A stretch of 64,000 nucleotides of DNA from Nemertoderma westbladi (taxonomy: Eukaryota > Animalia > Xenacoelomorpha): positions 14,424 through 78,423 of the forward strand of contig JAUCBJ010005260.1 in assembly GCA_032718475.1 (NCBI GenBank), read 5' to 3'. Below, piece after piece: positions 1-52,342 of this stretch. The notes below the pieces were generated by a model. That model did no database searches. It was not told where the DNA came from and saw only the letters and a program-made list of their open reading frames with translations. A program made the translations under genes and the position numbers. Positions within the stretch are counted from its first letter, which is position 1. Each line of letters opens with the position of its first letter.

Positions 1-53
1 GCAGCTCCAGTAGTGAGGATACTGTAGAGCTGACACCCGAGCGCGGAGCGGAG

Positions 54-5914: not shown

Positions 5915-5925
5915 GTAGGAATATG
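5915..5925 (+). promoter_or_regulatory. Non-tRNA primer-binding site, complementary to LTR 4852-4862
   Basis: GTAGGAATATG abuts the LTR end; its reverse complement CATATTCCTAC lies at 4852-4862. Confidence 0.7.
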
Positions 5926-6516: not shown

Positions 6517-6639
6517 AAAATTGGCCGCTAGGCTAATTTTATTATATACTTATTCCGTGACATTTATTTGCTGTAAAATTGGCCGTTTAGGCTAATTTTA
6601 TCCATCTGCTATAAAATCGGCCGGTAGGCTAATTTTATA
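6517..6639 (+). repeat. Three hairpin repeats in the leader (AAAATTGGCC-loop-GGCTAATTTT)
   Basis: Copies at about 6517, 6575 and 6613. Confidence 0.85.
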
Positions 6640-6721
6640 AGACTGTAATTAGTACCGTTTTATACAAATACGGTAAACTCGATACTTTGACACTCACTTC
6701 ACTTGACTTACAACTACCGAA

Positions 6722-9700
6722 ATGAGTGACAAACAAGACTATACGAAGAATACACAAACCGACTATGACTCATGTGACGCGGATAAGTCAGCAGCGGAAG
6801 AACAACAGGGGAAGACTCGCGAGCCTACCGAACCTACACCGTGTGCGTCACCAGTACATCCAACGGGAGTACCGGATGCCGTAGTACGAGGCGACGGCAG
6901 GACCGAGGACTTTCTAACTGTTCCGCAACCTAGATACAGGGAAACGGAAATGGTAAGTTCAGCAGGAAGCACAGAGAGCGTGGTTAGAAGCGTCGGAGGT
7001 TACATGGCGCATATAACCAGGAGTATTGGAGAAGACCAACGCATATTAGACGGGTTGACCGCTCCGATGTCTCGATTCGAGTTCTACACCCTCCAGGTTA
7101 GAGTACAGAGTAAAGTATATAAGTCCGTAGATAATCTAGTTGGCCTACAAGATCTAGCTAGACAGAGACAGGACATGGATACTCAACTTAGAATCCTCGA
7201 GAAACTAATGATCACTAGAGAGAAACTGATTCAGTTTAAGTCGACGATTAGACAGATACAACAGGAACAAGCGGACCAGTTGTTAGGTGAGTCAGTTTCG
7301 GACGAATTATTACAGCCCGAGGAAGAACAGGAACTGTACCGACTGGATGGACAATTGAAACACCTGACGGACCACTTACGCATGTGCGGCGAAGACGTCG
7401 GCGATTTAGAAACCGTGCCGGAATACACGAGGGAAACTCCATTCGCACAAATCGAATCGGCACCGGGAATACTAAATCAATCGCTGGTAAGTATTCGTAG
7501 CGAAATCTGCGAGGGAAGTATGGTCACGTCAGAAGTTGCTCGACAACAGCAACAGTTCTACAGACAGCAACACGAGATGGAAGAACAAGCTCAACTTCTA
7601 ATGATACAAACAGCAGTAGAGGAAGAGAAAATACGTGTTGCGAATGTAGCGAGAATCTCTCATCTGCAGGAACAAGCCGAACTCGAAGCGGCCGAAATGG
7701 AAAGGTTAGAGTTGGACATTGCCCAACAAGCGGCAGCGGCCGAGTTAGCGCAACGAACGGCAACAGCCGAGTTAGAGCGACAAACGGCAGCGGCAGCCGC
7801 AGCGGCAGAGTTAGAGCGACAGACGGCAGCGGCCGAGTTAGAGCGACAAACGGCTGCGGCAGAGTTAGAGCGACAAACGGCTGCGGCAGAGTTAGAGCGA
7901 CAAAGATTAGTTTCGGAAGCCAGAGTCGAGATGAAGACACGGCAAATAAAAGCCCAACAAGCGATACGACAAGCAGAGTTCGAGGCGCAACAACAACAAA
8001 CGGAACAACGAGAAAAGGAAGTTAAACTTCGTTTCGAACTTGAGAAAAGGGCGAGAGAATTAGCCGAAACTAAGGAAAATCTGGATCTTCTAGCCCGCGA
8101 TCGATCGATGAGATCTCGTGACGGACATGATTTGGACCAGTTAGAGGTAAGACATCGCCAAATTCAGGAACGGAAGAAGGAAGGAAGCATAGGAGCACCC
8201 GGACGGGAACGACAATTAGTAAAGGACGTGTGTCAACGATTCCCACAGGTAACTCATATGTTTGCACCGGTTACGACTAAGGAACCTGTTTCGATTGCGG
8301 GTAGTAGTGATATTTCTCCTATCCATGGTGCGACGGAACACAGGTTTGTTATTCCGAACGAGTTTATACCGCCAAGAGCAACGTCGTCGCCCATTCCGAA
8401 AGTCAAGGTAAGTAACCCACCGATTACAGATCGTAGTAGTTTATTAGTCAGACCTGCACTACTGACGACAAAACAGGTGAGTCCACCTTTGACACCTAAA
8501 CCCGTTACGCACTACGATTACCCAATGACATTTCGGCCTACAAGGCCTTTGGATTCAAACGCGGTCGTCCGACCACCATTCAATCAGTTTACGTCGCAAT
8601 CTACGACTTCGAGGAAGACTTGTGAGCCTACCGAACAATGGAGAACAGTGGATACGCGACCGGTTCAGTTTACGTCGCAATCTACGACTTCGAGGAAGAC
8701 TTGTGAGCCTACCGAACAACGAAGAACAGTGGACGATGTTCCGAAACGAGCCGTTAGAATTCGAACGACGCAACGGACGCGAGCACGTCGACCACCATAT
8801 CCAGATGATAGTAGTACTTCGAGCGAATCGGATTACCCGAAACGCGAGGTATTTAGAACAGGGGCGGCCGATGAATATAAACGCGAGCGTTCAGACAACT
8901 CCTTTGCAGACAATCCTCCACAGAATACACCAACACAGAAGGCGTTACAACCAACGGACGCAATTAGTACACAACAGTTCGCCGACATTCTGCGACCAGT
9001 TGTCAACAAGTTGGCTCAGATTGAGGAGCGTCTGGAGGAAGTTCAAACCGATAGTTCGAGGAACACCGAATTCGAACACAATAGACACCCGAAGGCACCA
9101 CAAAGACCGGTACCTTCAAACCCCACATCGTATCAGGGAAAAGCGCCTAGAAGGGAGAACATCAACCAGGTTACCAACCAAGGACGCGAAACTCTGAACG
9201 TTGCAGAGGAGATAGCGAAATTCGCAGCCAGACAGGGATTGCCGGTACAACAACCACCGAAGTTTTCCGGTAGCTCAAAACACTGGCATACCTTCGTAGA
9301 CTATATCGAATCCCAGATCGCCGTGTGCGCCTTTACATCACGGGAGAAGTTCAATTACCTGCTCCAAACGTTGTCAGGAGAACCTAAACGTTTGGCGGAG
9401 ACTTTCGTTGGTGTACCGGACGCTTTCGAACTAGCGTACGATCGTTTGACTTCGATATACGGAGGTACAGTGAGTATGGCCAGGTCAGTAATAGAGGAAC
9501 TCTGTAAGGGAGGGGCTATCACTAAACCCGTCGACTTACTAAAACTGGCTGACGAGATTAAGAACGCTATCACTACCTTAAGATCAATTGGACAACTTGA
9601 TTACGGGAATACCCCTACAGTTCTATTAAAGATAATAGGACGACTCCACCATCGACTTCGTCGGGGGTGGAGGAAGGTCGAATACCAGCGAGAGGAGCGA

Positions 9701-12700
9701 GGAGGATTCCTAAAATTAGAAGATGTGTACCTTTTAATATCCAGGGAGGCGGTAGTAGAAACTCGATCTAACTATACCGACCAGCACATCGTGGCAGAAG
9801 GAATCACACTGCCATCCTCCAGCCGACAAAAACCCCAGACAACATCCACAAAGACGGCCACTTATGCCACACCGACGGAATCACGACAATTCTCAGACGG
9901 GAATAGAGTATCTGCGCCCATTGGAACGAAACAGACGAGACAGCAACTCAGCGCCGACTTCAACGGCTGCCAATACTGCGAACATTTAGGTAAGCGGTAT
10001 ATTGGTCACAAGTTACGAGGTTGTCGACAATTTCGCGAGTTGAACTCAGAAGAACGACGGCTGCAGATACGGCCACTGGACTCTTGTTGGCGGTGTACGC
10101 GACACGGACACGTCCGTAAGGATTGCCCAAATACCGACACTTGTCCATCCTGTGGACGCAACCACGACGGTCTGCTCCACACAGACAGCCACACGCCGAC
10201 GAAACGCTTCGCCAGGGAACACCCGGAAGCAGCAGCGAGATGTGATGCGGCTTACCGAAAACGAGAATCGAAAACGACTCCGACTTTCGTGACCCATATA
10301 GAGGATTGCTTTTCAGAACAATCCGGATCGTCGGACGAAGAATCAGAAGACGACGAATATTCAAATGGAGACGAACAACCGTCAATCGCGCTTCTAACCA
10401 CTGACCAACTGAAGGGATTCAGTGTAATCCCGATTAAGATCACTGGCACGAAGGGGAGTAAGAGGATCTACGCGATTCTAGATTCAGCCTCATCTCACAG
10501 TTACGTGGATGAAAAGATAGCTGACGTCGTAACGGATCTAAGACAAGGTAAACACATCAGTTATACAGTAAGTAGTATGCACGGCCAGCGTGCAATACCA
10601 GTGACACGAGTTAAGTTGGACTTAGACTCTCTTCTTCCAAAATCGCAACACAGCGAGAGGGAGAGGTCTTTGTTGCCCTTTAGAGATCTAACCTTTGCTG
10701 CCACGAAGGACTTTAGTAACCTACTAGGTCCAGTGCCGGAACAATCTCTGGAGGACCGTAAGTATTTCAGACACCTTGGTGTACCCGAATGTCCTGTCAA
10801 TTATAGATCGGTAGCAATGCTGATCGGGACGGACCAATTCAACCTACATCAGGTGTGGGAAACCAGACCATCGGCAGTTGTAGCGGGAAACGCATACGCC
10901 TGCAGAACGCCGATAGGGTGGTATACTCGAGCGCCTGTGCGCACACTAGACGTAAGTGACGAGGAAGACGATGTACAGAGTACATGTAGTTTATTAACTA
11001 CAAATTCAATTCATTCCTTTTCACACGACGTGAACCATACTACACTACAGTCGACAAAACATGACAGACGTGTAACTAGTATGATAAGTCACAAGGAGCA
11101 GCTAACCCACCAGGTGAGTTTAGAACTTGGGGAGAAGACGAATCAGCTAGAGATTCCATCGACGACAGATGATAGGCTTGCGAGTCTACCTACCCCAATA
11201 ACCTCAACAGTGCCCGTCGACATCGACGATGACGCGTTGAAAATTCATCAGTTGGAACAAGCCGCCTTGGACAAAGAATTAACGGAGAAGACTATCAGGT
11301 GGTTAGAACAAGATACAGCTGAACCTGGTAGCTACGAACCTTGTATGTCGGAACAGGAGAAACAATCTCTGAAGATCATGGAAGAGACTATCCGACAGAC
11401 GGAGGACGGACATTACGAGGTGGGGATGTTATGGCGTAGCCAAAGTCCTAAACTTATAAATAACTACCCACTGGCTTTGAGACGTCTACACTCAATACGA
11501 CAACGTCTATTAAAGGACGAGAAAGCCCATCTGCAGTACAACACTCAGATGGAGACGTATTTGACTGAAGGATACGCTATCCGAATGACTAACCCGGAGC
11601 GAGTGACCGACCAGACATACTACCTGCCACATCACTATGTGAGACATCCCGACAAACCAGATAAGGTACGCGTAGTCAATGACTGTGCGGCTCTGTTTGA
11701 GGGAATGTCCCTCAATAGTGAGTTGATGGATGGACCGAACATGAATAATTATCTTATGGGGGTGATTATGCGCTTCCGTCAGCGTCAAGTAGCCTTTACT
11801 TGCGACGTTGAAGCGATGTTTCACCAAGTAAAAGCGTTAGAGCGAGACAGAGACAGTTTGCGGTTTCTCTGGTATCCGGAAGGGGACTTAAGTCTACCAC
11901 CAGCGACTTACCAAATGCAAGTTCGCGTTTTCGGTGCCAGAGACAGCCCAAATTGTACGATGTACGCCTTGAAGCAAGCCGCTAGAGATCAGAAACATCT
12001 GTATGACCCAGAGATAATTAGAATTGTAGAACGTGACTTTTACGTTGACGACGGATTACAGAGTTGCGACACAGTAGAACGTGCTACAACAGTAGCACAT
12101 CAATTACGGGACTGCTTGGCGGGCGGAGGTTTTAACCTCACCAAATTCGCCTCAAACAGTGCCGAATTAGTTGACTCATTCGGAACTACTGAGCGTGGAG
12201 GTGGTGACATAGACCTAGAGTTCGAACCACTACCGACGACTAAGGTGTTGGGGCTCTTTTGGGACCCAAACACAGACAACTTTCGAGTGAAGGTGAGACT
12301 GGACAGTCAAGGAGACACACTGACCAAGAGATCATGCTTGTCAAAGTTGAGCCGATTGTTCGATCCGTTAGGATTCATCAGTCCAGTAATACTGCAAGCT
12401 CGCATTTATATGCGCAGTATATGGAAGGATGGACTAACGTGGGACGAGCCGATCTCATCAGACCAAGTGGACTTATGGAAGACCTGGGAGGCGGAATTGT
12501 CTTCGCTAGAGGATTATTTCATACCCAGGGTTTACTTTCCATTACAGAGTACATTTCCTGACAACTTGGAACTACACTGTTTTTCTGACGCCAGTGACAA
12601 CGGTTTTGGTGTGGCAGCGTATTTGCGCAGACAAGTAGAATCGGACGAGTTCGATGTTTCGCTCATTACTTCTAAGGCTAAGACCATGCCCACTAAGTAT

Positions 12701-15433
12701 ATGACGACACCACGAGCCGAGCTACAAGCCGCGACCCTGTCAACCACCATCGTGAACCTCATACAGACAGAACTACAGTCGAGTTTACAGATATTTTATT
12801 GGACTGACGCGACGTTGGTTTTATTTTACATAAACAACGACACACTCGAATTCAAGACATTCGTAGCTAACCGTCGCGCAGAGATTCTAGACCGTTCGAT
12901 AAAAGAGGATTGGCGACATTGTCCAGGACCACAAAACCCAGCTGATATTGCGTCGCGAGGAATGATGCCTGAGGAATTCTGTAAACCGGAGAACAAAGAG
13001 TTTTGGCAACACGGACCCCAGTTCTTGCAGAAATCGACACAAGATTGGCCTCCGTTATACGACAACAAATCCAACACCATTCCTAAGGACGCCGAAATCA
13101 AGAAACCAAAAAAGGGGAAGACAAAGAAAAAGACGACGGCGGCAAAACTCAAGAAAAAACCGAAGGCGAAATGGAAAGATATAACTTCAAAGGTCAAGAG
13201 AGGAAGACTTGCGAGCCTTTCTACACCAGACATATCGCCAGACGGTCAACCAGACATATCGCCAGACGGTCAACCAGACACGTTACTAGACAGTCAACCA
13301 GACATTTTGCCAGACATATCACAAAATGTTCCACCAGACGCTAGTAACACACTGACAAACAGTAAAGCCGCAGTTTCTCTATTGGAGCGGCCTTCTATTG
13401 ACAAACAACTAGATACGTTACCAGACGTATCGCCAGACACATTACTAGACAGTCGACTAGACACTAGTAATGTATTGACTAACGATAAAGCCGCAGTTTC
13501 CCTATTGGAGCAGCCTTGTATTGACAAACTACCGATTTTGACACACTTGAGCAACCATAAGCACGGTGAAACCTCATGTATTACAGATGTGGGTAGTACC
13601 TACGCTAATGTAAATACAGGTGTTACTTTGCGCTCAAGAGACATACCGAACTTACAACCTACGGTGAGACCTGGGATTAATGTCGGCAGGAAAATAAGTT
13701 TACCGAAACCTGCTGACCCCATAGAGTTCAAACCACCATTAACGATCGACTTACAAAGTACCGACAATCAAGGTAAGAGGACAAAGGGGGACAAATTACT
13801 TGTAGACCCGGACGGATCAACAGTCAACAAGGGAATACCTACCGGCGGACCCGTGGGCCCTTCTAGTAATTTAAAACCTTCCAAATTCTCCATTGACTTA
13901 CCTGATGACGTCACAAATACTTACGTCGACCGAATTGTAAACTTAACAGACTCTTGGTCAAACGCTTGCCGAAAATTAGCGTGGATTGTACGTTTCGTAC
14001 AATACGTTAAAGGCAAACGTGACTTTACACGTCGACTTACATTGGCTGAGATTGACAGGTGTGAGATTCAATTAATTCGCCATTATCAACTGCGATATTT
14101 CGCGCGCGAATTCACATCTATAAATCAAGGTCAACCAATCAAGTCGTCACCAATACTGAGTTGGAGTCCGATTATTTATAATGGCTTAATTTGTCACAAA
14201 TCTCGGCTTCAAAACATTGACTTTAACACAAACTTTAGGTACCCAATAATAATACCGCAACATCACGAACTACAACGTGCAATGATACTGGACGCACATT
14301 TACATCTGAAACACGCTGGAAGACACCACTGTCTTTCCTACTTACGTACTAGATTTGTATTAATTAGACCCAGTAAAGCATTAAGTTCAGTGACACGTAC
14401 GTGTATTATTTGTAAAAAGGTACATTCTAGAATAGGTACCCAAGAAATGAGTGAACTACCACAAGCACGACTTCAAGCATTCAGACCACCTTTTACAGAG
14501 ACTGGAATTGATTGCTTTGGTCCCATACATACGAAACGTGGACGTATACTAGTAAAACGCTGGGGACTGATTTTCACATGTATGTCCAGTAGGGCAGTCC
14601 ACATTGAACGTGTGATGGATCTTTCCACCAACGCGTTTATACTAGCACTGCGGCGATTTATCGCTAGACGCGGACTAGTAAAATGCTTGTACTCAGACCA
14701 AGGGACAAACTTTGTTGGTGCTCGGAATGAGATTGCTAGAGCCTTTAAGAAATTAGATCATGATCAAATCTCGAACGAACTGCAACCTCACAAGATTGTT
14801 TGGAAGTTTAATCCTCCAGATAGTCCTTGGAGAGGCGGAGTCTGGGAGAGATTGATTAGATCTATCAAGACAGCCATGGCAAAGGTCATTCCAGTAAACC
14901 ACATACTAACAGACGACCAACTGACAACATTGTTTGTTGAAATCGAGGCAATACTAAATACTAGACCAATAGTATTAGTACCCGATAACAAACAATCTCA
15001 GTTTGCTTTGACACCGGCACACCTGCTTATGCAGGCACCGACCACATTGACGCCGATTTCCATTCCAATGGAAAGCGATAGTTACGGTAGAAAAGCTTGG
15101 AAAATCACGCAACTACTGGCTAACAAATTCTGGGAAATATGGCAAAACCATTATTTGCCCTCTATTTCTGCCAGAACAACTTGGTATAATAACACCCGCG
15201 CATTAAAGCCGGGAGATCACGTGCTGTTGGCAGAAGTGAATCTAAAAAGACGCTTCTGGATAACAGGTGTAATTTTAGCCACACATCCATCTATGGATGG
15301 AGTGACAAGGACTGTGACGGTACGGACAATTGACGGTCGTACAGTAGACAGACCGACTCAACGTCTCGTACTTCTTGAAGAGACTCGTAACGAGTCTGGA
15401 GACTACAAATCTCCACCTAATACTAGTAAATAA
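6722..15433 (+). CDS. gag-pol: Bel/Pao Gag-Pol polyprotein (Gag, zinc knuckles, protease, RT, RNase H, integrase), 2903 aa
   Basis: AILDSAS; YYLPHH..K.DKVRVVND; CDVEAMFHQV; FGARDSP; FYVDD; LHCFSDAS; NPADIASRG; GIDCFGP, YSDQGTNF, PW.GG.WERLI. Confidence 0.97.
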   Translation: MSDKQDYTKNTQTDYDSCDADKSAAEEQQGKTREPTEPTPCASPVHPTGVPDAVVRGDGRTEDFLTVPQPRYRETEMVSSAGSTESVVRSVGGYMAHITRSIGEDQRILDGLTAPMSRFEFYTLQVRVQSKVYKSVDNLVGLQDLARQRQDMDTQLRILEKLMITREKLIQFKSTIRQIQQEQADQLLGESVSDELLQPEEEQELYRLDGQLKHLTDHLRMCGEDVGDLETVPEYTRETPFAQIESAPGILNQSLVSIRSEICEGSMVTSEVARQQQQFYRQQHEMEEQAQLLMIQTAVEEEKIRVANVARISHLQEQAELEAAEMERLELDIAQQAAAAELAQRTATAELERQTAAAAAAAELERQTAAAELERQTAAAELERQTAAAELERQRLVSEARVEMKTRQIKAQQAIRQAEFEAQQQQTEQREKEVKLRFELEKRARELAETKENLDLLARDRSMRSRDGHDLDQLEVRHRQIQERKKEGSIGAPGRERQLVKDVCQRFPQVTHMFAPVTTKEPVSIAGSSDISPIHGATEHRFVIPNEFIPPRATSSPIPKVKVSNPPITDRSSLLVRPALLTTKQVSPPLTPKPVTHYDYPMTFRPTRPLDSNAVVRPPFNQFTSQSTTSRKTCEPTEQWRTVDTRPVQFTSQSTTSRKTCEPTEQRRTVDDVPKRAVRIRTTQRTRARRPPYPDDSSTSSESDYPKREVFRTGAADEYKRERSDNSFADNPPQNTPTQKALQPTDAISTQQFADILRPVVNKLAQIEERLEEVQTDSSRNTEFEHNRHPKAPQRPVPSNPTSYQGKAPRRENINQVTNQGRETLNVAEEIAKFAARQGLPVQQPPKFSGSSKHWHTFVDYIESQIAVCAFTSREKFNYLLQTLSGEPKRLAETFVGVPDAFELAYDRLTSIYGGTVSMARSVIEELCKGGAITKPVDLLKLADEIKNAITTLRSIGQLDYGNTPTVLLKIIGRLHHRLRRGWRKVEYQREERGGFLKLEDVYLLISREAVVETRSNYTDQHIVAEGITLPSSSRQKPQTTSTKTATYATPTESRQFSDGNRVSAPIGTKQTRQQLSADFNGCQYCEHLGKRYIGHKLRGCRQFRELNSEERRLQIRPLDSCWRCTRHGHVRKDCPNTDTCPSCGRNHDGLLHTDSHTPTKRFAREHPEAAARCDAAYRKRESKTTPTFVTHIEDCFSEQSGSSDEESEDDEYSNGDEQPSIALLTTDQLKGFSVIPIKITGTKGSKRIYAILDSASSHSYVDEKIADVVTDLRQGKHISYTVSSMHGQRAIPVTRVKLDLDSLLPKSQHSERERSLLPFRDLTFAATKDFSNLLGPVPEQSLEDRKYFRHLGVPECPVNYRSVAMLIGTDQFNLHQVWETRPSAVVAGNAYACRTPIGWYTRAPVRTLDVSDEEDDVQSTCSLLTTNSIHSFSHDVNHTTLQSTKHDRRVTSMISHKEQLTHQVSLELGEKTNQLEIPSTTDDRLASLPTPITSTVPVDIDDDALKIHQLEQAALDKELTEKTIRWLEQDTAEPGSYEPCMSEQEKQSLKIMEETIRQTEDGHYEVGMLWRSQSPKLINNYPLALRRLHSIRQRLLKDEKAHLQYNTQMETYLTEGYAIRMTNPERVTDQTYYLPHHYVRHPDKPDKVRVVNDCAALFEGMSLNSELMDGPNMNNYLMGVIMRFRQRQVAFTCDVEAMFHQVKALERDRDSLRFLWYPEGDLSLPPATYQMQVRVFGARDSPNCTMYALKQAARDQKHLYDPEIIRIVERDFYVDDGLQSCDTVERATTVAHQLRDCLAGGGFNLTKFASNSAELVDSFGTTERGGGDIDLEFEPLPTTKVLGLFWDPNTDNFRVKVRLDSQGDTLTKRSCLSKLSRLFDPLGFISPVILQARIYMRSIWKDGLTWDEPISSDQVDLWKTWEAELSSLEDYFIPRVYFPLQSTFPDNLELHCFSDASDNGFGVAAYLRRQVESDEFDVSLITSKAKTMPTKYMTTPRAELQAATLSTTIVNLIQTELQSSLQIFYWTDATLVLFYINNDTLEFKTFVANRRAEILDRSIKEDWRHCPGPQNPADIASRGMMPEEFCKPENKEFWQHGPQFLQKSTQDWPPLYDNKSNTIPKDAEIKKPKKGKTKKKTTAAKLKKKPKAKWKDITSKVKRGRLASLSTPDISPDGQPDISPDGQPDTLLDSQPDILPDISQNVPPDASNTLTNSKAAVSLLERPSIDKQLDTLPDVSPDTLLDSRLDTSNVLTNDKAAVSLLEQPCIDKLPILTHLSNHKHGETSCITDVGSTYANVNTGVTLRSRDIPNLQPTVRPGINVGRKISLPKPADPIEFKPPLTIDLQSTDNQGKRTKGDKLLVDPDGSTVNKGIPTGGPVGPSSNLKPSKFSIDLPDDVTNTYVDRIVNLTDSWSNACRKLAWIVRFVQYVKGKRDFTRRLTLAEIDRCEIQLIRHYQLRYFAREFTSINQGQPIKSSPILSWSPIIYNGLICHKSRLQNIDFNTNFRYPIIIPQHHELQRAMILDAHLHLKHAGRHHCLSYLRTRFVLIRPSKALSSVTRTCIICKKVHSRIGTQEMSELPQARLQAFRPPFTETGIDCFGPIHTKRGRILVKRWGLIFTCMSSRAVHIERVMDLSTNAFILALRRFIARRGLVKCLYSDQGTNFVGARNEIARAFKKLDHDQISNELQPHKIVWKFNPPDSPWRGGVWERLIRSIKTAMAKVIPVNHILTDDQLTTLFVEIEAILNTRPIVLVPDNKQSQFALTPAHLLMQAPTTLTPISIPMESDSYGRKAWKITQLLANKFWEIWQNHYLPSISARTTWYNNTRALKPGDHVLLAEVNLKRRFWITGVILATHPSMDGVTRTVTVRTIDGRTVDRPTQRLVLLEETRNESGDYKSPPNTSK

Positions 15434-16089
15434 TTAGGAGTTTACAAATAGATTCCACGTACCTGTACACCGTAGTAAGGACAGCGGTAGAATTCCATTG
15501 TCTTTATATGTGAACATTGAGGGTAGTACCCTTATGTGTCACATAGGAGCGGGATTTGTAGGTATAAGAAATGGAATTCTACTTGGAACTCACAATATTG
15601 AGACATTTTCGAAATTTTAGACAATCCATTTGGATTTGAAAAATTTTTAAAATTTTCTCCAGTGAATAGATTCCAGGGTACAGTCGGGTGGAACTTAAAA
15701 TTAGAGAAACAAGAGAGGAAGACTTGCGAGCCTTTCTTAAAATTTTAATTAAATTTTACACGGTCTTGTTTCAATAAGTTACGTCAAAATAGACTCCCCT
15801 ATATTTATTACTAATTCTTGACTGCTTATTTTCTGATAATAGTTTGGGATCAAAAAGTGAGTATTTTAGACTCACGGCCAGTTTAGCCCAAATTCGTTTT
15901 TATTTCGGCAAAAATTTTAGATAAGAAGCAGCGTGTCATTAAAGAAACCCTAGATCTTAGGCTATGGGTAGGAGGTTAGAGCGTTGTCGAGCCCAAAGGG
16001 CAGACGAAACTCTCACGTCTCCTCACAACTAACTACAAACTCTGTTGTATTCCCTCTAGTAGTAATGATTATGTAACTACACCCTAATT

Positions 16090-16425
16090 ATGGAGAAAGG
16101 GATACAAGGAGAGCCGAGATGGGGATATGATATCCAAGAGGAGGCAGCAGCGCCATTCGAAAGATTTGGAGCCAAGGATTACACTATATTTGGTATAAAG
16201 GAATTATCAGAAAGTACAGCGAAGCTCGCAAAGACAGCAATGCCTTTACTCGAGCAGGATTTAGCATATTTCGAGACGTGTATCTTCGCTGTGCGGGATC
16301 TCTTATCGAAAGACCATCTATGTTTACATTGTTACCCTATGAAGGAGAACGTATCGTGGAGATTATGGATGAATCACGGCAGACGCGCGCGCCTATCGGT
16401 CACCTTGGTGATGAATTCGAAGTAA
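16090..16425 (+). CDS. Small overlapping ORF upstream of accessory gene (111 aa, unknown)
   Basis: ORF track; lies just downstream of a splice-acceptor-like signal (CTAAC...pyrimidines...AG, 16029-16059). Confidence 0.3.
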   Translation: MEKGIQGEPRWGYDIQEEAAAPFERFGAKDYTIFGIKELSESTAKLAKTAMPLLEQDLAYFETCIFAVRDLLSKDHLCLHCYPMKENVSWRLWMNHGRRARLSVTLVMNSK

Positions 16426-17792
16426 CTACTACGATCGCCGACGATCCTTTAGAGGAACTTCTTGAGATAGAAAGGAACCTCCCGAAGAAATCTCAGACGG
16501 AGATTCGACAACTTGAAGCAACAGATGCTATAGTTTGTATACAACCTTCAGAAACCTACCAACCCATAGACCCAGATGATTACGATTATAGTATGGGAGG
16601 AAGCGCTCGACCGATTGGAGATCTTATATACGAACGAGTGTGGTACCCTGCCAATACGATGTGTAATAAATGTGGCGTCGCTGGACATCATATGGCAAAG
16701 TGCAGTGGAAAGCACATTACTACGACTCAGCTAATCTGTGGATGGTGTGGGGATCAAGGGTCTCATACCTTTTATACTTGCTGGAGATTTATGGCTCAAT
16801 GTACTTACTGCAATATAAAGGGACATCGAGCATCTGAATGCCAACTAAGGGACATACCTTATGAACACGAATCTGTAAAACTCGTGAGGAAGTTATTTGA
16901 TGAGTGGGAAGATTTAGCCGACGAACATGTATCGGCACAAAGAAGACGGTTTCCGATGAGAGCGCATCTCGGATTTTGGGCGGTAAATCCTCAAACGATG
17001 ATGTCGGAAGGATACATCTCCGCTATGCCTCAGTACGACGAACTTATCGAGGTTGTCGATATTTTGCCCCACGACAGCGGATTCCGAGTGGTGCGCGAGT
17101 ATCTGTTACAGATTCACCCGGATAACAAAAACATGTGGAATTTTCAGAAAGTCGTAAATCGTATCACGTATGGTGAATTTGATCGTTTCCGAACCGAAAA
17201 GCGGAATAAAGGAGCTTGGTTAACCGTCGCATGGGCGTACCGAGCCGCGTTTTACCATAAACGTATACGAGCGAGCGTATTCGAGGAAGAAGAGGTCCTA
17301 GAGGCGACGAATATATCAGCCACTCCGGTTGCGCCGTCTGCACGTCACCCTCGGGAGGACGGGCAGGGTAGGATCATACGGGTCCAGAAGGTGGGCCAAC
17401 AATTGAAGAAAATTATTAATGTAGAAGAACGCAAGGGAGTTGAGCCGACTATTCGAGTTACTCGGGATACGGTATCACTTCCAAGAGAACCGGTAGGAGG
17501 ATCGGGACATACACCAGCTGATCAACAGGGGGCGCAAGCTACTCTTGGGTCTGCGTCGTCCGCTTCTCACGCGTTCCCAGACGTTCTACCAACTGTAGCG
17601 ACGACTGATCGGTCACGAGGAATTGGTCGAGGTTTTGGGATGCCAAATAGACGAATTTGCGAGGAAATAGTTGCACCGTCTCTCAACGTCCCAAGTAAAC
17701 CAGTGACTCGCCCCATTAGTCCCATATCGCGAGCAAAGTCACCTGTGCGCAGTTTTCGAGGACGCGGCAGGGCTCGATCTACTAAGCGATAA
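16278..17792 (+). CDS. Accessory protein with triple CCHC zinc knuckle and basic C-tail (start uncertain; frame open from 16131)
   Basis: CNKCGVAGHHMAKC, CGWCGDQGSHTFYTC, CTYCNIKGHRASEC; alignable by eye to 25437-27326. Confidence 0.85.
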   Translation: MYLRCAGSLIERPSMFTLLPYEGERIVEIMDESRQTRAPIGHLGDEFEVTTTIADDPLEELLEIERNLPKKSQTEIRQLEATDAIVCIQPSETYQPIDPDDYDYSMGGSARPIGDLIYERVWYPANTMCNKCGVAGHHMAKCSGKHITTTQLICGWCGDQGSHTFYTCWRFMAQCTYCNIKGHRASECQLRDIPYEHESVKLVRKLFDEWEDLADEHVSAQRRRFPMRAHLGFWAVNPQTMMSEGYISAMPQYDELIEVVDILPHDSGFRVVREYLLQIHPDNKNMWNFQKVVNRITYGEFDRFRTEKRNKGAWLTVAWAYRAAFYHKRIRASVFEEEEVLEATNISATPVAPSARHPREDGQGRIIRVQKVGQQLKKIINVEERKGVEPTIRVTRDTVSLPREPVGGSGHTPADQQGAQATLGSASSASHAFPDVLPTVATTDRSRGIGRGFGMPNRRICEEIVAPSLNVPSKPVTRPISPISRAKSPVRSFRGRGRARSTKR

Positions 17793-17849
17793 AAGGGAGG
17801 GCAAGGGTGGACGGAAGACTCGTGGGCCTTTCTTATGATTTGTGATTTA

Positions 17850-18400
17850 TTTTGAATTATATGTTTTATATTTAGAAAATTTAGTAAACTTATATTTTAT
17901 ATTTGTGCTTATTTCGAACTTATGCAATTTGTATTGTTCCGAATTTATGAAATTTAGAAATAAGAACTCATATTTAGTAAACTTATATTTAGTAAGAATT
18001 TATATTTTATATTTACGTGATTATTTCGAACTTATGCAATTTATATTATTCTGAACTTATGCAATTTATATTATTCCAAACTTATGCAATTTGTATTGTT
18101 CCGAATATTATGCAATTTATATCTTATAAGCAGTATTTGTATTTACAGTAAAAGAGAAAGTTTTATAGACAGAAAATTTGTGCTCAGAAAGACTCATATT
18201 TGTAATTATTCCAAACTTATGCAATCTACATTTAGGTACGAAAGTATTTGTAATTACTTGAATTTATGCAATATTTGGGATGCAATAGTAGATGGAAGAC
18301 TCGCGAGCCTTTCTTATTGTTTTCATTTATTTGTATTTGTAATTGTTTGAATTTATGCAATATCTGAGATGCAATAGATTTATATTGGTGAATTTAATTT
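17850..18400 (+). repeat. Degenerate ~24-bp AT-rich tandem repeats in 3' UTR
   Basis: Recurrent CGAACTTATGCAATTT(A/G)TATT units. Confidence 0.85.
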
Positions 18401-18610
18401 AGATTTATATTGTACTTACTTAGTAAAGCCTTAAATACGTAAAGTTTGAATTTGTAATTATTTTTGTATCGAATCATTACGTAGAAAGGAAGTATTGTTT
18501 GAAATTTAATTGTAAATATGTAAGTACGCCCTAAGTATTCTATAGTTTGATTGATTATTGGTGAAAACCGTATATTTTAAGCACGATAATATCCTGTTTT
18601 CATGGAGCGG

Positions 18611-20533
18611 TATAGAATTATATTCCCTAAATGCCGTGGATTTTCAAAATTTTTATTTTATTCGAATTAACTTTGTAAAGATTGCTTTGAGTTCTCATTA
18701 GTATTGGTTCTATCTATTGTGTATCTATCGGTCAAGTGGTTCAGTAGCTCAGTTGGTAGAGCGTTGGAAATTATATGTGTAGTAGGTATCGAGTTCGAAT
18801 CCTAGTAAGTGCGAATTATTTTTTGTGCAGAATTTCAACTCATTTAAATTAACCGCTACAAATTAATTGCATTTGTCTGTACCAATAAGGCTGTAGTTAT
18901 TTGATTGTAACCAATGTCGTGCAAGTTATATATTAGCTGGACCAATAAGCTATCTTTAAAACCTTGTTAGAACCCATAGAACAATCGAGAATTTTCTCGA
19001 TTGATTGCAGCACAAATTTAGTATATAAAGGTGCGATTCGTTCATTAGTTATCAATCTCTCAATCTTGTATTTCAATCTATACTTCTCAGATTTATTCTG
19101 TCGTGCTTAGTTTATTCTCAGATTACATTGTATTATAATTGTATCTTCTGTAATAAAGTCAGAATATTCTCTCAGCTTTTCTGTTTTACTATGAATTCAC
19201 TACGGTGAACAAACTCGGGGACAGGATGGCCAGCTAGAGATCGGGCCGCAGCAATGAACGGGAACATCACGGGAATGTAGACGAGAGACAACCCGCAATA
19301 CCATCTAGTGTTATTCGCCCATCGCCTGAAAGGTTAGACAGCGTTCGATCCTTGCTACCTAAGTATAAGACCAAAAGATCAAAAGGTAGACGCAGTGACA
19401 CGCTGTAAGCCCAAAATTACATCATAGGGACTGTACTGTCTTGATTCAGGAAAAAACCGCAGTAGACCTTCATATTCCTACGGGGGGAGGGAAAGCGCAG
19501 GCAGATACTAGTACGCAGATAGGACGTAGGCACACCGGTACAAGGCATACACATTGGTTAGGGTGCAGCAAACTGTACGCTTAACTCTTGCTAAGTACAG
19601 GTGTGTGTGCGACTATTTGCCGTACAACGGTGTCCAGTGCATTAGAACTTGTAGGCTAGGGGGGTTGCTGTGTTTTCACCTGAATTGGGATTGTACCGTT
19701 CAGGCGGTAGGGCAGTTTACGCTAGGCGCAAAATAAATTGAGGCTATCAGGGATATACTAACATCTACCGTGTCCCCGCCAACGCCCTAATAGGAAGTTA
19801 CCCGGACTACCTGGGTGACTAAAATTCTAGATAGGAGCCAGGATAGCTATTAGTACCCGTACGCCTACAGTAGTAAACTAACACATCTCTTCTTAGTATC
19901 AGGGACCTGGTACCTAAAATTGCCGAATTCTGGGCGTAGTATTAACCTTATGCCTGAATTTGAGTCCTGGAAATACGCAAGAGGGGAAGGAACCTTACCA
20001 TTCGTGAGTATTGGACCTACAAGTTACAAATTAGAATATTCGTAAAATGCACACCGTACCCAGTAATTATATATGTGAAGGAGCAAAACTGCTTTTGACC
20101 GTTCAGAATTAACACACGCGCGTTAGAAATTATTTACACCTCAAAATATATAAAATTAACTTAGTCCGTACTGTGCTTTGCCCGCTAGTTAGACATCTCC
20201 AAATCTGCTCTGTACCTAGCTAGCGTCCTTTCGCCCAACCATATAAATCACACCGCGGCAAAGTATACGAGCCTCTTAGTCCGTCAGTGAGTCAGCCTGA
20301 TTTTAGGATTCGCTGCGCGGGATTTTGTTTTATCGAAGTTTGTCCGCTCGTAGACTGTTTTCTGCCTCACCGGTTAAAAGAGATAGATACTGCAATATAT
20401 TCGCTTACTTAGGGTTTACTGTTTTGGTGAGAAGGTCGGATTTATGATTTGATTTACAAACTTTACAGTAGGATATTGCAGGTATTGTTACCGTCTCTTC
20501 CGATAGTAGGAATAGGCGTATCTCTCCAATTTA
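18611..20533 (+). repeat. 3' LTR of nested Bel/Pao element
   Basis: Direct repeat of 3992-5914 (one T/C difference seen, 4557 vs 19176); preceded by GGAGCGG. Confidence 0.97.
18738..18824 (+). ncRNA. tRNA-derived Pol III-type unit in 3' LTR
   Basis: Copy of 4119-4205. Confidence 0.6.
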
Positions 20534-20537
20534 CATC

Positions 20538-21425
20538 GGCCAAAACGCGCATGAGGCGCTGGAGACATTAGAGAAACGACCTACTCAACCGCAACCACTT
20601 CAGACCTATGCGGTAAGAACTAGAGTAGGTTGGTACCTTACTGGACCTTCCCGTAGAACGCTCAGGGAAAGACTGCTTCAAGATCGCGTCTGCCAGGTGA
20701 GTGAATGGGAAGATGATACTAGTGAGGGAGACGACCCAACTGAGGGAACACCACACTCCTCAGATAATGACAATCTTAGCTCCAATGTAGATCAATGGAG
20801 ATATTGCCCCAAGAAGTTTAATCCAACGGACATCGCTTCCAGAGGAGCAACTCCTCAAGAACTGACAGATACTATAGACCGGTTAGGTGAACCCGACTTC
20901 CTGAGTAAGGAGAATGAATGGCCTCCCCATCTTACTCCGACTGAGATTAGACCAGCCAAGGGAGCGGAGAAAGTCGAACCTGAAACCCGGACGGGTGGAT
21001 CGGAGTTATTTGAACCCGGGATAGATCTGTCGGTATTACATGTTGCCAGGGACGACGCCGTGGATCTGAGCCTCCCCTCCGCGAGTGGATCCTTCATGAA
21101 GATCAGAGAGAGCGATTGGAGCTCTGGAACATCAGACGTCTCGCAGGGACTCTCACCTCTCCTGCAGAGAGCGACGGACCACTATAGCTCCTGGAATCGG
21201 CTTTGTGACGCCGTCATATACTTTGAGCGATGTTTCTATCGTCACTATTCCAGGACGAAGAGGAAACCTGGAATTGTATTCAGGATGCAGCGACTCAATC
21301 ACCCAGTCGGTCGTTTGTGTTTATCGGAAGGGAATGGAGGACTCTCAGGAAACTATGGAAGGCAAGAAACTCTTCCCACGACCACTTCCCTAATCCAACC
21401 GACATCTAGGGACTCCCCAACTTAA
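20538..21425 (+). CDS. Continuation of host polyprotein: protease end fused to RNase H tail remnant; RT and integrase absent
   Basis: In frame with 2656-3991 once the insertion is removed. Contains AVRTRVGWYLTG, WRYCPKKFNPTDIASRG and YSSWNRL, then a stop. Confidence 0.85.
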   Translation, partial: GQNAHEALETLEKRPTQPQPLQTYAVRTRVGWYLTGPSRRTLRERLLQDRVCQVSEWEDDTSEGDDPTEGTPHSSDNDNLSSNVDQWRYCPKKFNPTDIASRGATPQELTDTIDRLGEPDFLSKENEWPPHLTPTEIRPAKGAEKVEPETRTGGSELFEPGIDLSVLHVARDDAVDLSLPSASGSFMKIRESDWSSGTSDVSQGLSPLLQRATDHYSSWNRLCDAVIYFERCFYRHYSRTKRKPGIVFRMQRLNHPVGRLCLSEGNGGLSGNYGRQETLPTTTSLIQPTSRDSPT

Positions 21426-23072: not shown

Positions 23073-25379
23073 ATGACTGAATTAATAGAAGATGATCTTG
23101 GTATCAGGGAGAGATATACTCTACCTTTACAAGCGTTTGTCGATAGCTTGATACGCGGCGACGCTGATCCAACTATTACGGAGGACGATGGTCGTTATAT
23201 CGAACCGCCAATGTCCCAGGAGCAACTTACGCGTGAATTGGATTATAGAAAGTTCACTGCTCGCTACATGCATCGTAATGGTACGTATATGGACTTCTTG
23301 ACCACTGGTCATCCTATTGATTTACACGACACCGACGATGTAGACACCGAAAGGGAAATGGTTTTGTTTAAATATCATGCCCAGCGGAGTCGAAACGATA
23401 AATCGAGAATAGAACACGAGAACTCTATTCGAAACAAACTCGAAATAGAAGACGTTGAAGAACCTGATAAACGTAACGGTTTCAACGATTATCTAGAATT
23501 CTTACGAGAGACCTATCTCAATGTTGCCAGTCAACAAAACCTCGAAACTCGATATCCCCAAGGTATACATCCAGATCCTATAATGGAACTCAAACGGCTC
23601 TATTTTACGATGATGTATCTTACCGCCGATCGACCGCTACCTGTCGTTCCAGATAGCTTCGAACAGATGGAGGAATATTGTAAAACTGGAGAGCGATCAC
23701 CCGCGTTTCCCCTTCAAGACGTGCGTCTTTGGTATTACTGTGACGAATGCCCTAGACCTAACCAGCAAATCGAAAGGCATAAACATCCTCGGAGACGTTG
23801 CGCTAAACACAGTTTTACGCGATATACTTATGGGAGTTTCGAGCGTAACCTTTTCGACGTATCACCTACGGTCGCGCGCCTTAAGCGATCATTGAATAAA
23901 CCCATGATCAGAGTTCCGGAATACTCGGTCAGACCTCCCCATTCACCAGTGATACCTCAAACTCTAGATCCTAATAGTATTATGGATCCTCCCGAACTGT
24001 ACTCACTGTTCAAAGACCTAGTGTTACCTGAACAGTTGATTGGTGGCACTCCGGTAGTGGGTTCGTTGGATATTCGCCAACCTTACCTCGCTGGACTAGG
24101 ACGCGGTCATTTAATATCACCGTTTAATCCCTACAACCGTCCTGGCCTTCCTCCGATCCAACCTGTTACAGAAGTTGAAGAGAGCGTGATACGAAATGCA
24201 TTGGACGCTATTCGGCAGAAAATCGGAAAAGGAACTTACGATTGCTTGGAGAAACGTAAATTGCAACAACAAGTCCAAGCGGTGAAAGAACTAGCTTTAC
24301 CCCAGTTCGATAGAGAAATACAAAATCTAGAGGAAGACATCGAACGTGGACGAACCTACTCTTTACAGGAATTCCTGGACGAGCGCTTGCAGCAACAAGC
24401 GGAGGAAAATCAGCTCAAGGAGAGACATATAGAGCTGACGGAGAGGGAAGAAGCAGCTTTAGCCCAACCAGAAGCTCAAATTCTCGTGACGGACCTCTAT
24501 TCCAAAACGATTCTCCACCCCTCGATGGTTCCTCATTTTAAAGACAAGCTCTTTGCTACGGTACAGCCTCAACCGGTTAATACCGATCTCAGATCTCACG
24601 AGCTCGTTGCTGACGCTCCTATGCTACAACGTCCACCCGTAGAGGCTGCCCGTGTCGATGGCGTACTTGTTGAGCTTCCGGACAATAGAGCGGATCTTGT
24701 CCGTCGCATGGTGCACGATGTTAACATACGCGCTAGACCTTTGCCGGACTCATTTTATGGAATTAAAGATCATCCTTATTACGTTAATTTAAAGCAATAT
24801 TACATGGTGAAACCAGAAGATCCTACGCATAGTCTGAAGTTTCTACCATTGATCAATCCTCTCGACCTTGTCGAACTCGAACAACTACAAAAACACCTAG
24901 ATCAGCTAGTTAAACTAAACTCATTTAGAAAACCGTATAATATTTCTAGAATAGAGAAAGAAATATCACCTCCGTATAATCTTGATGGCTTTATTAAAAC
25001 TCGATTAGTGCACTGGAATCTCGACGTGTTATTCGAGGAAGAAAGAATAAAACGATATGGCGATGTGGAAACCTATACTACACAATGCTTAAAGTATAGA
25101 GATTTACCCAATGCTAACGAGTGCGCTACTTTGTGGCATCCAGTGGGAATGACTCTCGAAAACGCCACTAAAGAATGGAACGAGACTCTTAACGTTATCG
25201 AGATGTATGGCGTTGTTACTTACGACAACGAAGGTAGCGTTCCGGTGGGAGAATTAGGAACTACGCGAATGATACATATACGAGGACTCGCTGGTTCTAC
25301 CCACGTATTCACACGAGCGTGTTCTGACGTGATTGATTATTCTTTTGAAACTCTTACGGAGATACAAAAGAAACTTTGA
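23073..25379 (+). CDS. Accessory protein, N-terminal part (768 aa; coiled coil; start of DEDDy-like exonuclease)
   Basis: Long ORF; ends in a single TGA that is in frame with 25437-27326; contains GVVTYDNEG. Confidence 0.8.
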   Translation: MTELIEDDLGIRERYTLPLQAFVDSLIRGDADPTITEDDGRYIEPPMSQEQLTRELDYRKFTARYMHRNGTYMDFLTTGHPIDLHDTDDVDTEREMVLFKYHAQRSRNDKSRIEHENSIRNKLEIEDVEEPDKRNGFNDYLEFLRETYLNVASQQNLETRYPQGIHPDPIMELKRLYFTMMYLTADRPLPVVPDSFEQMEEYCKTGERSPAFPLQDVRLWYYCDECPRPNQQIERHKHPRRRCAKHSFTRYTYGSFERNLFDVSPTVARLKRSLNKPMIRVPEYSVRPPHSPVIPQTLDPNSIMDPPELYSLFKDLVLPEQLIGGTPVVGSLDIRQPYLAGLGRGHLISPFNPYNRPGLPPIQPVTEVEESVIRNALDAIRQKIGKGTYDCLEKRKLQQQVQAVKELALPQFDREIQNLEEDIERGRTYSLQEFLDERLQQQAEENQLKERHIELTEREEAALAQPEAQILVTDLYSKTILHPSMVPHFKDKLFATVQPQPVNTDLRSHELVADAPMLQRPPVEAARVDGVLVELPDNRADLVRRMVHDVNIRARPLPDSFYGIKDHPYYVNLKQYYMVKPEDPTHSLKFLPLINPLDLVELEQLQKHLDQLVKLNSFRKPYNISRIEKEISPPYNLDGFIKTRLVHWNLDVLFEEERIKRYGDVETYTTQCLKYRDLPNANECATLWHPVGMTLENATKEWNETLNVIEMYGVVTYDNEGSVPVGELGTTRMIHIRGLAGSTHVFTRACSDVIDYSFETLTEIQKKL

Positions 25380-27326
25380 CATGGACAATTCGAACTCGCG
25401 CAGCGTTACGTCACCGACACCGAACGCAAACCGGCCATGGGTATCGATGGATCAATGTTACCCCAACCTGTACTCGCAATGTTGTTTAACGAAAGAATTC
25501 TAAAAATCGGCTCAGCTGTTTATGGAGATCTCCAAAACGACTTCCGGAATATGGAGAACATTCCATACCCTTTCGTTGATACTCAGCTGATTGCTCCTTG
25601 GGCCGAAGGCCGAGGTTTCTTTCGCACTATGTATGCCAATACACCCAGCAGCATTACTAAAGTACAACGGACATCCATCGGACATCTTGCCTTTCAAGAA
25701 TATGGTTGGAATTTCAAAGTTGGAAATCCTATAAATTACCAGCAAGTATATGGAGATCATTACTCCCGTTTATATTTTGACGGACCATTAACTGCGCCTG
25801 GTGCCGTATATAGCTTTATGAGTGTTCCACTTCGCCCTTCCTTAGCTATATACACGATCTTTGAAAACGCAGCACTTGCCGGTTGGCTAGCCGATGTGTG
25901 CAGTCGTACCATACGCGCTCACCCGTTAATACTTGGAACTAAACTCGCCAAGTTAGACGAACACAATAAGTTCATACGTTTCGAATGTTTCCGGCGCTTT
26001 CTGACTCCGTTCCTTAACATCGACAGTCAGTTCAAAGATCGCGCGCTGACCAAGCTCAGTCTTAGAGACTCAGCTGCGGAGAAACTGAGTAGCGCTGGAT
26101 TTGCCGTGTTTCAAGACGTTTGTATACAGAACTCACATTCATCTGTTATACAAAGACCCCGAATACCTACAGGTTATTCTGTCGTGGAAATACAGACAGT
26201 GGGTCCACTTACGGAAACCGACGCACCAACTTCGTCTATGCAGCTGGAGGATGAACCAGTATGCTTGGAATCCGAAGCGATTCAACCTACGGCTTCTCGG
26301 AGCAGTGACAATGATTATGTCATAGAGTGGTATCAAGGTCCACAGCGTCTCACAGCGTACGATTATCGACACGCCAACCACGTTTACCGAAAACGTTGTC
26401 GATTATGCGCATCGAGAGACCACTTCACTCCTCTCGACTCGAGCGTACCTTGTTCCTATTTCCTCGAACAACCGATGATGGAAATATATTGTGCTTATTG
26501 CCGGCTTAATAACTCTCATATATTTGCCGTCTGCCCACAGTTTATGACTCAATGTCACTACTGCCAACTTAAAGGACACGAAAGTTACAATTGTCCCTTT
26601 AATCGCGATTTAGAGAGCGTAGACGAGATGATCACCCTGCGATACATCCGAGCTTGGGAAGCGAACGCAGATTTACATTGCGAATCCAGACATCGCTATT
26701 ACCCTGGACGAGCTTACGAGGGAGTTTACGCGTTCCATCCTTATCTATTCGCGTCGATTGAACAGAAAACACGCGTACCAAGTTACGAGTTAATGAAGCG
26801 TGTTGGTGAGTGTATTTCCACCAAGTTTGTCAGGAAATACCTGAGAAACGTTAATCCTAATGATATAACCACATATCACCTGATCAATTATATCCGTCAG
26901 GACCCTGAGTATGGCGACATTTTCGTGAACTCGCATCCTGAACTCCAGGAAGTATCTCGGCGCCCATATGAATACCGAACCCGAGAACGCGAGCTGGAGA
27001 GAACCATTAAACCGAGAAAGTTCCTCACCACTCACGGTCCACCCACCGCTAGTGTCCAGACGACCCGTCAAGGACCCGTAGGAGCTGCTGTCCTGAGACG
27101 CGCTCTAAAGGCCGTTAGACCTCACTCCACTGAGGTTGATATTAATCAACCAGGTACCTCGACCGGCGGGTATACCGATCGTAACCCTGCACCTTCTGAT
27201 GCAATTATATTGCACCCTTCGCCTAGGAGCTACAGCCCACCTCGTAAAGTGGCTCGCCCCAAAGAGAAAAGGACTCTTGCTAGCCTCCAGAAACTGCGTA
27301 AACGCCGTCCGCGCAAGAAAGACTAA
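25380..27326 (+). CDS. Accessory protein, C-terminal part (rest of exonuclease-like domain, triple zinc knuckle, basic tail)
   Basis: LFNERILKIGSAVYGD, FVDTQ, PLTAPGAVYS; CAYCRLNNSHIFAVC..CHYCQLKGHESYNC; LRKRRPRKK. Confidence 0.8.
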   Translation, partial: HGQFELAQRYVTDTERKPAMGIDGSMLPQPVLAMLFNERILKIGSAVYGDLQNDFRNMENIPYPFVDTQLIAPWAEGRGFFRTMYANTPSSITKVQRTSIGHLAFQEYGWNFKVGNPINYQQVYGDHYSRLYFDGPLTAPGAVYSFMSVPLRPSLAIYTIFENAALAGWLADVCSRTIRAHPLILGTKLAKLDEHNKFIRFECFRRFLTPFLNIDSQFKDRALTKLSLRDSAAEKLSSAGFAVFQDVCIQNSHSSVIQRPRIPTGYSVVEIQTVGPLTETDAPTSSMQLEDEPVCLESEAIQPTASRSSDNDYVIEWYQGPQRLTAYDYRHANHVYRKRCRLCASRDHFTPLDSSVPCSYFLEQPMMEIYCAYCRLNNSHIFAVCPQFMTQCHYCQLKGHESYNCPFNRDLESVDEMITLRYIRAWEANADLHCESRHRYYPGRAYEGVYAFHPYLFASIEQKTRVPSYELMKRVGECISTKFVRKYLRNVNPNDITTYHLINYIRQDPEYGDIFVNSHPELQEVSRRPYEYRTRERELERTIKPRKFLTTHGPPTASVQTTRQGPVGAAVLRRALKAVRPHSTEVDINQPGTSTGGYTDRNPAPSDAIILHPSPRSYSPPRKVARPKEKRTLASLQKLRKRRPRKKD

Positions 27327-27404
27327 CTGTTTAGAGTATTTTTATATTTTAGAAACTGTGATTTTGTATATTTTATAGACTTAAATCCCATTTTCTGGGA
27401 GCGG

Positions 27405-52340: not shown

Positions 52341-52342
52341 AC

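Follow-up and report, generated by a model that had tools for sequence, protein, structure and literature searches.

A putative DEDDy exonuclease–zinc knuckle gene at the env position of a BEL/Pao retrotransposon of Nemertoderma westbladi

The window analysed here, a 64,000-nt stretch of the Nemertoderma westbladi genome (assembly GCA_032718475.1, contig JAUCBJ010005260.1, positions 14,424 to 78,423 of the forward strand), contains a 1,417-codon accessory gene, running from an ATG at 23073 to a TAA at 27326 with one internal TGA, where env usually lies in a BEL/Pao long terminal repeat (LTR) retrotransposon that is present in many copies. On balance, we favour the view that this gene encodes an active RNA 3′–5′ exonuclease, equipped with three zinc knuckles, which serves the element. 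As the likeliest substrate we put forward, tentatively, the silencing RNA that the host directs against the element, or the precursors of such RNA. Coordinates throughout are positions in the window, and the gene lies on the + strand.

The exonuclease domain and its active site

The accessory gene comprises two open reading frames (ORFs; 23058–25379 and 25380–27326) which share one frame and are divided solely by the TGA (context CTT TGA CAT), as the original prediction for this stretch had described. The single stop compares with 74.6 expected from composition (P ~4e-32), whilst the other two + frames over the gene contain 71 and 94 stops. The five sequence motifs on which the original prediction drew are all present, in the order it gave. 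No membrane span was found in the accessory protein (the best 19-residue hydropathy window scores 1.19), again as predicted, and an env-like function was rejected on this ground.

Assignment of the domain that spans the TGA to the DEDDy (WRN/EXD2/RNase D-like) exonuclease class is supported by several profile comparisons. An exhaustive search of 1.84 billion representatives returned a single match, P0003 (648 residues, E 2.4e-5), an intact natural homolog that is likewise built of an exonuclease, three knuckles and a basic tail and has approximately 25–30% identity to the window protein; pairwise comparison of the two gives E 7e-13 for the exonuclease region and E 2e-5 for the knuckles. A hidden Markov model of 78 bacterial WRN-like exonucleases (from a set of 120 loci, 78 of which gave a motif-bearing ORF of at least 150 residues) was run against 80 targets and matches the window domain at E 0.0013, compared with E 0.66 for the highest-scoring decoy, an unrelated ORF of the window. 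Alignment with hhalign of the window protein plus P0003 against 79 WRN-like sequences (the same 78 and a fungal protein) gives a probability of 96.0%, compared with 0.2% for the reversed query and at most 4.7% over 60 column shuffles. These values bear out the fusion of an exonuclease domain to zinc knuckles that had been proposed from the sequence. By Atlas features, the clusters closest to residues 25–260 of P0003 are those of PF01612 (0.94; 34% of members carry the family) and unnamed, mostly fungal ones (0.94–0.95).

Word-indexed homolog searches, each restricted in length range, gave no further relatives, and scans of viral contigs likewise found none. A metagenome scan gave one confirmed locus out of 365 candidates, the fungal locus L001; its DUF6729-linked protein is a clear PF01612 member (E 3.7e-8), with WRN and EXD2 nearest in the PDB, and at 89.7% against the window-plus-P0003 profile it is the closest profile relative found in contigs. 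The locus is transposon-like over positions 6533–9813 of L001, where a canonical WRN-like DEDDy exonuclease comes after DUF6729. An HRDC domain gave no Pfam match at E up to 10 in either the window protein or P0003, although a very divergent one is possible.

A model of P0003 residues 24–258, computed from an alignment of 56 rows (54 of them from the WRN-like family, cut after the Exo II region), has a predicted local distance difference test score (pLDDT) of 67 and a predicted TM-score (pTM) of 0.62. Foldseek returned 57 matches to this model at E ≤0.001; among the 39 listed are EXD2, RNase D, TbRND, Nibbler, Egalitarian, Rrp6, EXD1, WRN and NrnC, together with one entry titled only ‘nuclease’. 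The profile comparisons place the window domain with the DEDDy family and the model of P0003 has the DEDD fold, so that the outcome which would have refuted the original prediction, no such fold in profile or structure searches, did not arise.

The predicted active site reads D-E-D-E, with the tyrosine kept, in both the window protein and P0003 (Table 1). The glycine and aspartate of Exo II are invariant in 52 of 52 alignment rows. For Exo III we propose PLRPSLAIYTIFE, the core of which, YTIFE (residues 927–931), places a glutamate where DEDD enzymes carry aspartate. In pairwise alignment this segment matches P0003 WTKPLCHDQLYYIYCE, which fits the family pattern W..L..Q..YAATD, and under E-INS-i the YIYCE of P0003 lines up with YAATD. 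In the P0003 model, a long helix that was not guided by the alignment begins just after the PL of this motif (model residues 201–228, pLDDT 55–63). The original prediction had placed Exo III at PLTAPGAVYSFMS (residues 905–917) with its last acid replaced, which is probably some 15 residues too early; that placement and an alternative QQVYGD register were dropped in view of the clearer W-x-x-P-L-x-x-x-Q-x-x-Y-x-x-x-acid match further on in P0003, and the better register, at PLRPSLAIYTIFE, keeps a glutamate. An alternative Exo I at DTE (residues 783–785) was also set aside, as strands 2 and 3 could not then be fitted in ahead of Exo II. In this register the window protein and P0003, for all their low identity, share the D, E, D, Y and E residues; with all four acidic positions retained, as D-E-D-E, the enzyme may be active.

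Several observations weigh against this reading. Pfam and PDB sequence searches with the window domain itself gave no match, and P0003 matches PF01612 weakly (E 0.2), missing the Pfam cut-off. The significant profile match spans Exo II and approximately 90 columns after it, but not Exo I or Exo III; default MAFFT shifts both of these motifs to other registers, so that the Exo III register is provisional, and in a gapless scan the YIYCE register, although the C-terminal best of P0003, has a low score. With glutamate in place of aspartate as the metal-A ligand, catalysis may be reduced or lost. The structure check suggested with the original prediction succeeded for P0003 but not for the window protein, whose single-sequence AlphaFold model has a pLDDT of 31; the fold evidence thus concerns the homolog and not the window protein itself. 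Within the P0003 model, residues 140–199 have pLDDT <50, the TM-scores of its Foldseek matches are low (0.36–0.53), and the test is partly circular because the alignment was seeded with WRN-like sequences. The substitutions on which the argument for selection draws (below) are, moreover, rows chosen by the tool.

Zinc knuckles and copies of the gene

The knuckles and the motif that follows them are conserved in all three sequences compared, with 26 invariant columns, 11 of which are Cys/His. Against the PDB, the knuckle profile matches Air2 best (E 4.7e-4), followed by Gag nucleocapsids, LIN-28 and TbRND (E 0.054). Basic tails are present in all three compared proteins (12, 8 and 9 of 25 residues are K/R), and that of the window protein is a possible nuclear localisation or RNA-binding signal. 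Residues 1–679 have neither a Pfam match nor a PDB sequence match; a Cys/His cluster in this N-terminal region (CDECP...HKH...C..H; window 23739–23810) may bind zinc too, and a coiled-coil-like stretch is predicted near residues 395–465. None of the partner domains of WRN, EXD2, Nibbler/MUT-7, EXD1 or Egalitarian was detected in Pfam and PDB searches.

Six of the 11 sequencing runs listed, from four studies, contain all or part of the stretch; none is on record as RNA, and the runs have no bearing on expression. Over positions 22500–28200, contigs from four runs (29,311, 8,258, 441 and 145 contigs) range in identity to the window from 99% to below 90%, indicating that the element family has many diverged copies. 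The comparison yielded 778 substitutions, 40 of which are listed, and 25 of the 34 listed in-frame differences fall at third codon positions (P 2e-6); all 12 of the listed indels (of 50) lie outside the frame. This pattern does not fit neutral evolution among copies, against which the original prediction had staked itself, and the accessory gene appears to be under purifying selection. Third positions account for 22 of the 27 shared polymorphisms, compared with three of the seven near-fixed differences from the window (Fisher P 0.06); first or second positions thus hold four of the seven differences private to the window, which speaks for decay of this copy. The exonuclease domain holds just four of the 34 in-frame rows, three of them at third positions, and selection on the domain itself is therefore thinly sampled.

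Five of the 15 listed joints (of 27) skip 2.2–2.9 kb including the exonuclease domain. As such deleted copies exist, together with a recently transposed relative without the domain (described below), the domain is probably not needed in cis.

Table 1. Positions of the accessory gene, its motifs and the elements that surround it in the window
Feature	Position	Strand	Description and basis
Upstream frame, 768 codons + TGA	23073..25379	+	~690 residues without recognised family, then start of exonuclease domain including Exo I
Downstream frame, 648 codons	25380..27326	+	Exo II and III, linker, three zinc knuckles, conserved post-knuckle motif, basic tail
Single in-frame TGA	25377..25379	+	Between Exo I and Exo II
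Predicted DEDDy-type 3′–5′ exonuclease domain	25140..25907	+	~Residues 690–945; profiles, and fold via homolog P0003
Exo I, D718 + E720	25224..25232	+	Aligns with P0003 D62/E64 pairwise, with family DxE under E-INS-i
Exo II, KIGSAVYGDL, D819	25503..25532	+	Profile and alignment
Proposed Exo III, PLRPSLAIYTIFE	25827..25865	+	Residues 919–931 (Y927, E931); pairwise match to P0003, register provisional
Three Cys/His zinc knuckles	26397..26594	+	Conservation; PDB profile match
Basic C-terminal tail	27249..27323	+	12 of 25 residues K/R; composition
Polypurine-tract-like GGGAGCGG	27397..27404	+	Followed by TG; same tract precedes inner 3′ LTR
Outer gag + protease	3..3996	+	Frames 3–2669 and 2605–3996; DUF1759 E 5e-12, Asp_protease_2 E 0.0013
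Outer polyprotein remainder	20534..21425	+	End of protease region, RNase H tail, pre-integrase helix, stop at 21425
Nested complete BEL/Pao element, very young	3992..20533	+	Target-site duplication CATCG; 2,908-codon gag-pol
Nested accessory ORF	16131..17792	+	Matches residues 998–1270 (knuckle half), 27% identity, E 5e-19

The carrier element and its nested relative

The accessory gene is preceded by the pol remnant, and followed by the polypurine tract, of an outer BEL/Pao element, so that the LTR element and the env position of the original prediction both stand; what it had missed is that this carrier has no reverse transcriptase (RT), no integrase and lacks most of RNase H, as assessed by Pfam and by homology to the nested element. 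The outer element is a non-autonomous BEL derivative. Its BEL-type gag (DUF1759) and protease are also homologous to the nested gag-pol, and a 133-nt tandem duplication shifts the frame in the gag–protease region. Approximately 300 codons after the outer protease stay open across both gaps, which points either to recent deletions or to a maintained Gag–protease-only design. The outer 3′ LTR probably starts with the TG at 27405. The outer 5′ LTR lies outside the window, and the assignment of the accessory gene to the outer element therefore rests on its position and on the parallel with the inner element.

The nested element has LTRs of 1,923 nt with one mismatch between them, and its Pfam matches are Peptidase_A17, Integrase_H2C2 and DUF5641. 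It carries an accessory ORF at the same position in the element as the outer gene, with knuckles present; no exonuclease match was found within 15434–18610. An Atlas search with the nested knuckle region gave only leads under 0.9. In the 16091–17792 region there is no in-frame ATG before the conserved part of this ORF, an ATG-led overlapping frame starting from 16091; the ORF may be reached by splicing or frameshift, or it may be truncated. The nested element is unlikely to act as helper of the outer one, because their gag–protease identity is 23–27% and their LTRs are without DNA similarity.

The inner LTRs (3992–5914 and 18611–20533) start and end with TA, not with TG...CA, and at 1,923 nt they stand outside the range of 0.2–1.2 kb given by the virus taxonomy committee ICTV. 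No TGG-type primer-binding site was found after the inner 5′ LTR. Both LTRs contain a tRNA-like stretch with A-box and B-box-like motifs (~4110–4195 and 18729–18814); ARAGORN and Rfam called no RNA genes, this stretch included. Elsewhere in the window, a Polinton/Maverick-like region (~42134–59237) has matches to an adenoviral-type protease, an rve integrase and an ATPase, and is interrupted by RT fragments. A TBP-like match (E 3.7e-8) lies within it at 47755–48312, and it is flanked by an inverted repeat pair of 400 nt (39475–39871 and 60315–60716; 97% complementary, 20.6 kb apart).

Known systems and proposed function

DEDDy third genes are already known in rotifer LTR elements, and the novelty claimed in the original prediction was to that extent overstated. 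The bdelloid LTR retrotransposons Juno and Vesta carry a DEDDy ORF3 with DEED in place of DEDD, described without a function being shown (PMC5408684). Athena/Terminon elements also carry DEDDy ORFs (PMC6431247), Dada DNA transposons carry DEDDy domains (PMC3706591), and a review names the DnaQ-like domain as a known LTR accessory domain (PMC6338049). As to BEL/Pao, the ICTV profile mentions only env as an extra gene and places RT, RNase H and integrase in pol (PMC8742986); ‘exonuclease’ is absent from the main text of PMC3118150, PMC2774666, PMC9094657 and PMC3315495, and passages of PMC3985635 add only a BEL/Pao family classification. No report of a BEL/Pao exonuclease–knuckle gene was found in the literature searched, outside which most subscription papers lie. 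An RNase D-like domain is said to have been noted in nematode Cer elements in 2000, and, if this is correct, the BEL carrier is not new either.

Compared by published description rather than by sequence, the ORF3s of Juno, Vesta and Athena resemble the accessory gene in that each is a DEDDy gene downstream of pol, in the place of env, and lacks membrane or env features (the rotifer ORF3s are also without coiled-coil env features). One acidic position has become glutamate in the rotifer genes, giving DEED, as one probably has here, giving D-E-D-E. The accessory gene differs from them in its BEL/Pao carrier, its length of 1,417 codons, its three knuckles, long N-terminus and basic tail, and in its apparent purifying selection. 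A cellular counterpart is TbRND (Trypanosoma brucei RNase D, PDB 7c42), which is matched by the fold search with P0003 and, weakly, by the knuckle profile, and which likewise combines a DEDD exonuclease, a linker and tandem knuckles; its CCHC knuckles bind RNA upstream, and trimming of the 3′ end takes place at the DEDD site by means of two metals (PMC7797062). The likeness appears to be one of architecture. TbRND is a cellular enzyme of the mitochondrion that has four knuckles, a linker of 28 residues and aspartate at the fourth position, whereas the accessory protein has three knuckles approximately 160 residues after the domain and, in the proposed register, glutamate at that position.

With WRN, EXD2, Nibbler/MUT-7, EXD1 and Egalitarian (PF01612) the accessory domain shares its Exo I/II motifs and, going by the model of P0003, its fold class, a likeness which implies orthology to no named member; identity is ~15–20%, with insertions after strand 3 and before Exo III, and YxxxE in place of YxxxD. 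The Dada domains and the L001 protein are, like the accessory protein, transposon-borne WRN-like exonucleases, but they belong to DNA transposons, with the domain inside or beside the transposase, and they have canonical DEDD residues and no knuckles.

Under the mechanism that we propose, a subgenomic transcript would give rise to the protein, as with env or ORF3. Single-stranded RNA would be held by the knuckles, which, as in TbRND, would pass its 3′ end into a two-metal site made up of D718, E720, D819 and E931 with Y927, and the basic tail would carry the protein to the nucleus or onto RNA. The protein would exert its effect in trans, given that transposition of young and deleted relatives does not require the exonuclease domain; the existence of this relative and of the deleted copies fits a trans helper, most plausibly one directed against host silencing, better than it fits a core replication step. 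A DEDD exonuclease of arenaviruses serves immune evasion (PMC7968707). A more far-reaching form of the proposal, which we regard as quite improbable, holds that a non-autonomous BEL/Pao family that has lost RT and integrase keeps a 4.3-kb gene for an active TbRND/Rrp6–Air2-like nuclease that destroys host PIWI-interacting RNAs (piRNAs) or small interfering RNAs (siRNAs) in trans, perhaps with a recoded stop. If true, this would be an animal retrotransposon-encoded RNA-silencing suppressor, repaying autonomous helpers with protection.

The protein could instead be a catalytically dead RNA-binding adaptor, similar to Egalitarian, EXD1 or Maelstrom, which localises or shields element RNA, binds silencing factors or serves as a decoy. 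The glutamate at the fourth acidic position would be consistent with this, as would the recovery of EXD1 and Egalitarian by the fold search, Egalitarian in complex with I-factor RNA included, and the occurrence of the knuckle half alone in the young nested element implies that RNA binding is useful without a nuclease. Dead domains, however, usually do not keep all active-site residues across such divergence, and four acids and the tyrosine are kept between proteins that are ~25–30% identical; these residues make an adaptor unlikely in our judgement. Rotifer ORF3s with the glutamate variant (DEED) were, moreover, judged possibly active (PMC5408684). An active enzyme might also work within the replication cycle, either by proofreading for RT or by trimming before integration, be it of the primer tRNA, of the end of the genomic RNA or of the 3′ ends of cDNA. 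The closest profile relative in contigs, the fungal L001 protein, is a WRN-like exonuclease of DNA-transposon type, DNA is the substrate on which WRN and EXD2 act, and the knuckles resemble nucleocapsid fingers; the DEDDy domains of Dada transposons are thought to process cleaved 3′ ends (PMC3706591). Set against such a role, which we consider as unlikely as an adaptor, are the recent movement without the domain of a complete relative (LTR mismatch 1/1,923), the separation of the gene from gag-pol and a carrier that has neither RT nor integrase. That a recently captured host gene is simply riding along neutrally seems very improbable: rotifer env and GDSL third genes are near-neutral within a genome (PMC5408684), but here there is a third-position bias with no listed indels inside the frame, a second and only distantly related BEL family has the knuckle half in the corresponding place, and homolog searches found no close host-type homolog.

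The internal stop raises a further possibility, independent of the function of the protein, namely that it is common to many copies and is bypassed by read-through or splicing, thereby setting the ratio of an N-terminal product to the full nuclease–knuckle protein. The TGA sits inside a stretch of ~40 residues without counterpart in P0003 or the WRN-like family (pairwise and E-INS-i alignments), splice-like dinucleotides flank it, and a TGA followed by C is a leaky stop context. The codon is also missing from the 40 listed differences, several window-private ones being listed, which is a weak hint that other copies may share the stop and that it may not be private to this one. Nevertheless, the TGA splits the domain between Exo I and Exo II and not at a domain boundary, the candidate acceptor is weak, having no pyrimidine tract, and none of the 15 listed joints (of 27) skips the stop stretch. 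A readthrough-stimulating RNA structure, searched for downstream of the TGA by folding against shuffles, was not found, the RNA 3′ of the TGA folding less stably than the shuffles (z +1.7 to +2.0). The carrier copy also bears other lesions, the frame-shifting duplication in gag and the nested insertion. A bypassed stop is in our view doubtful, and the stop is more readily explained as nonsense decay in this copy or a small subfamily, an explanation that we hold to be likely; this copy is probably a decayed one.

The role of rotifer exonuclease third genes has been open since their description, in which no activity is shown (PMC5408684). Set beside these genes, the present one is carried by a BEL/Pao element, joins nuclease to knuckles in an arrangement for which TbRND is a cellular analogue of solved structure, and appears to be under purifying selection; it also offers natural relatives without the domain and an intact homolog, P0003, that is suited to assay. 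Should host small RNAs be its target, the enzyme would represent a counter-defence of a kind rarely encoded by animal transposons; as a dead adaptor or a replication helper, it would still be a new type of accessory gene for the BEL/Pao clade.

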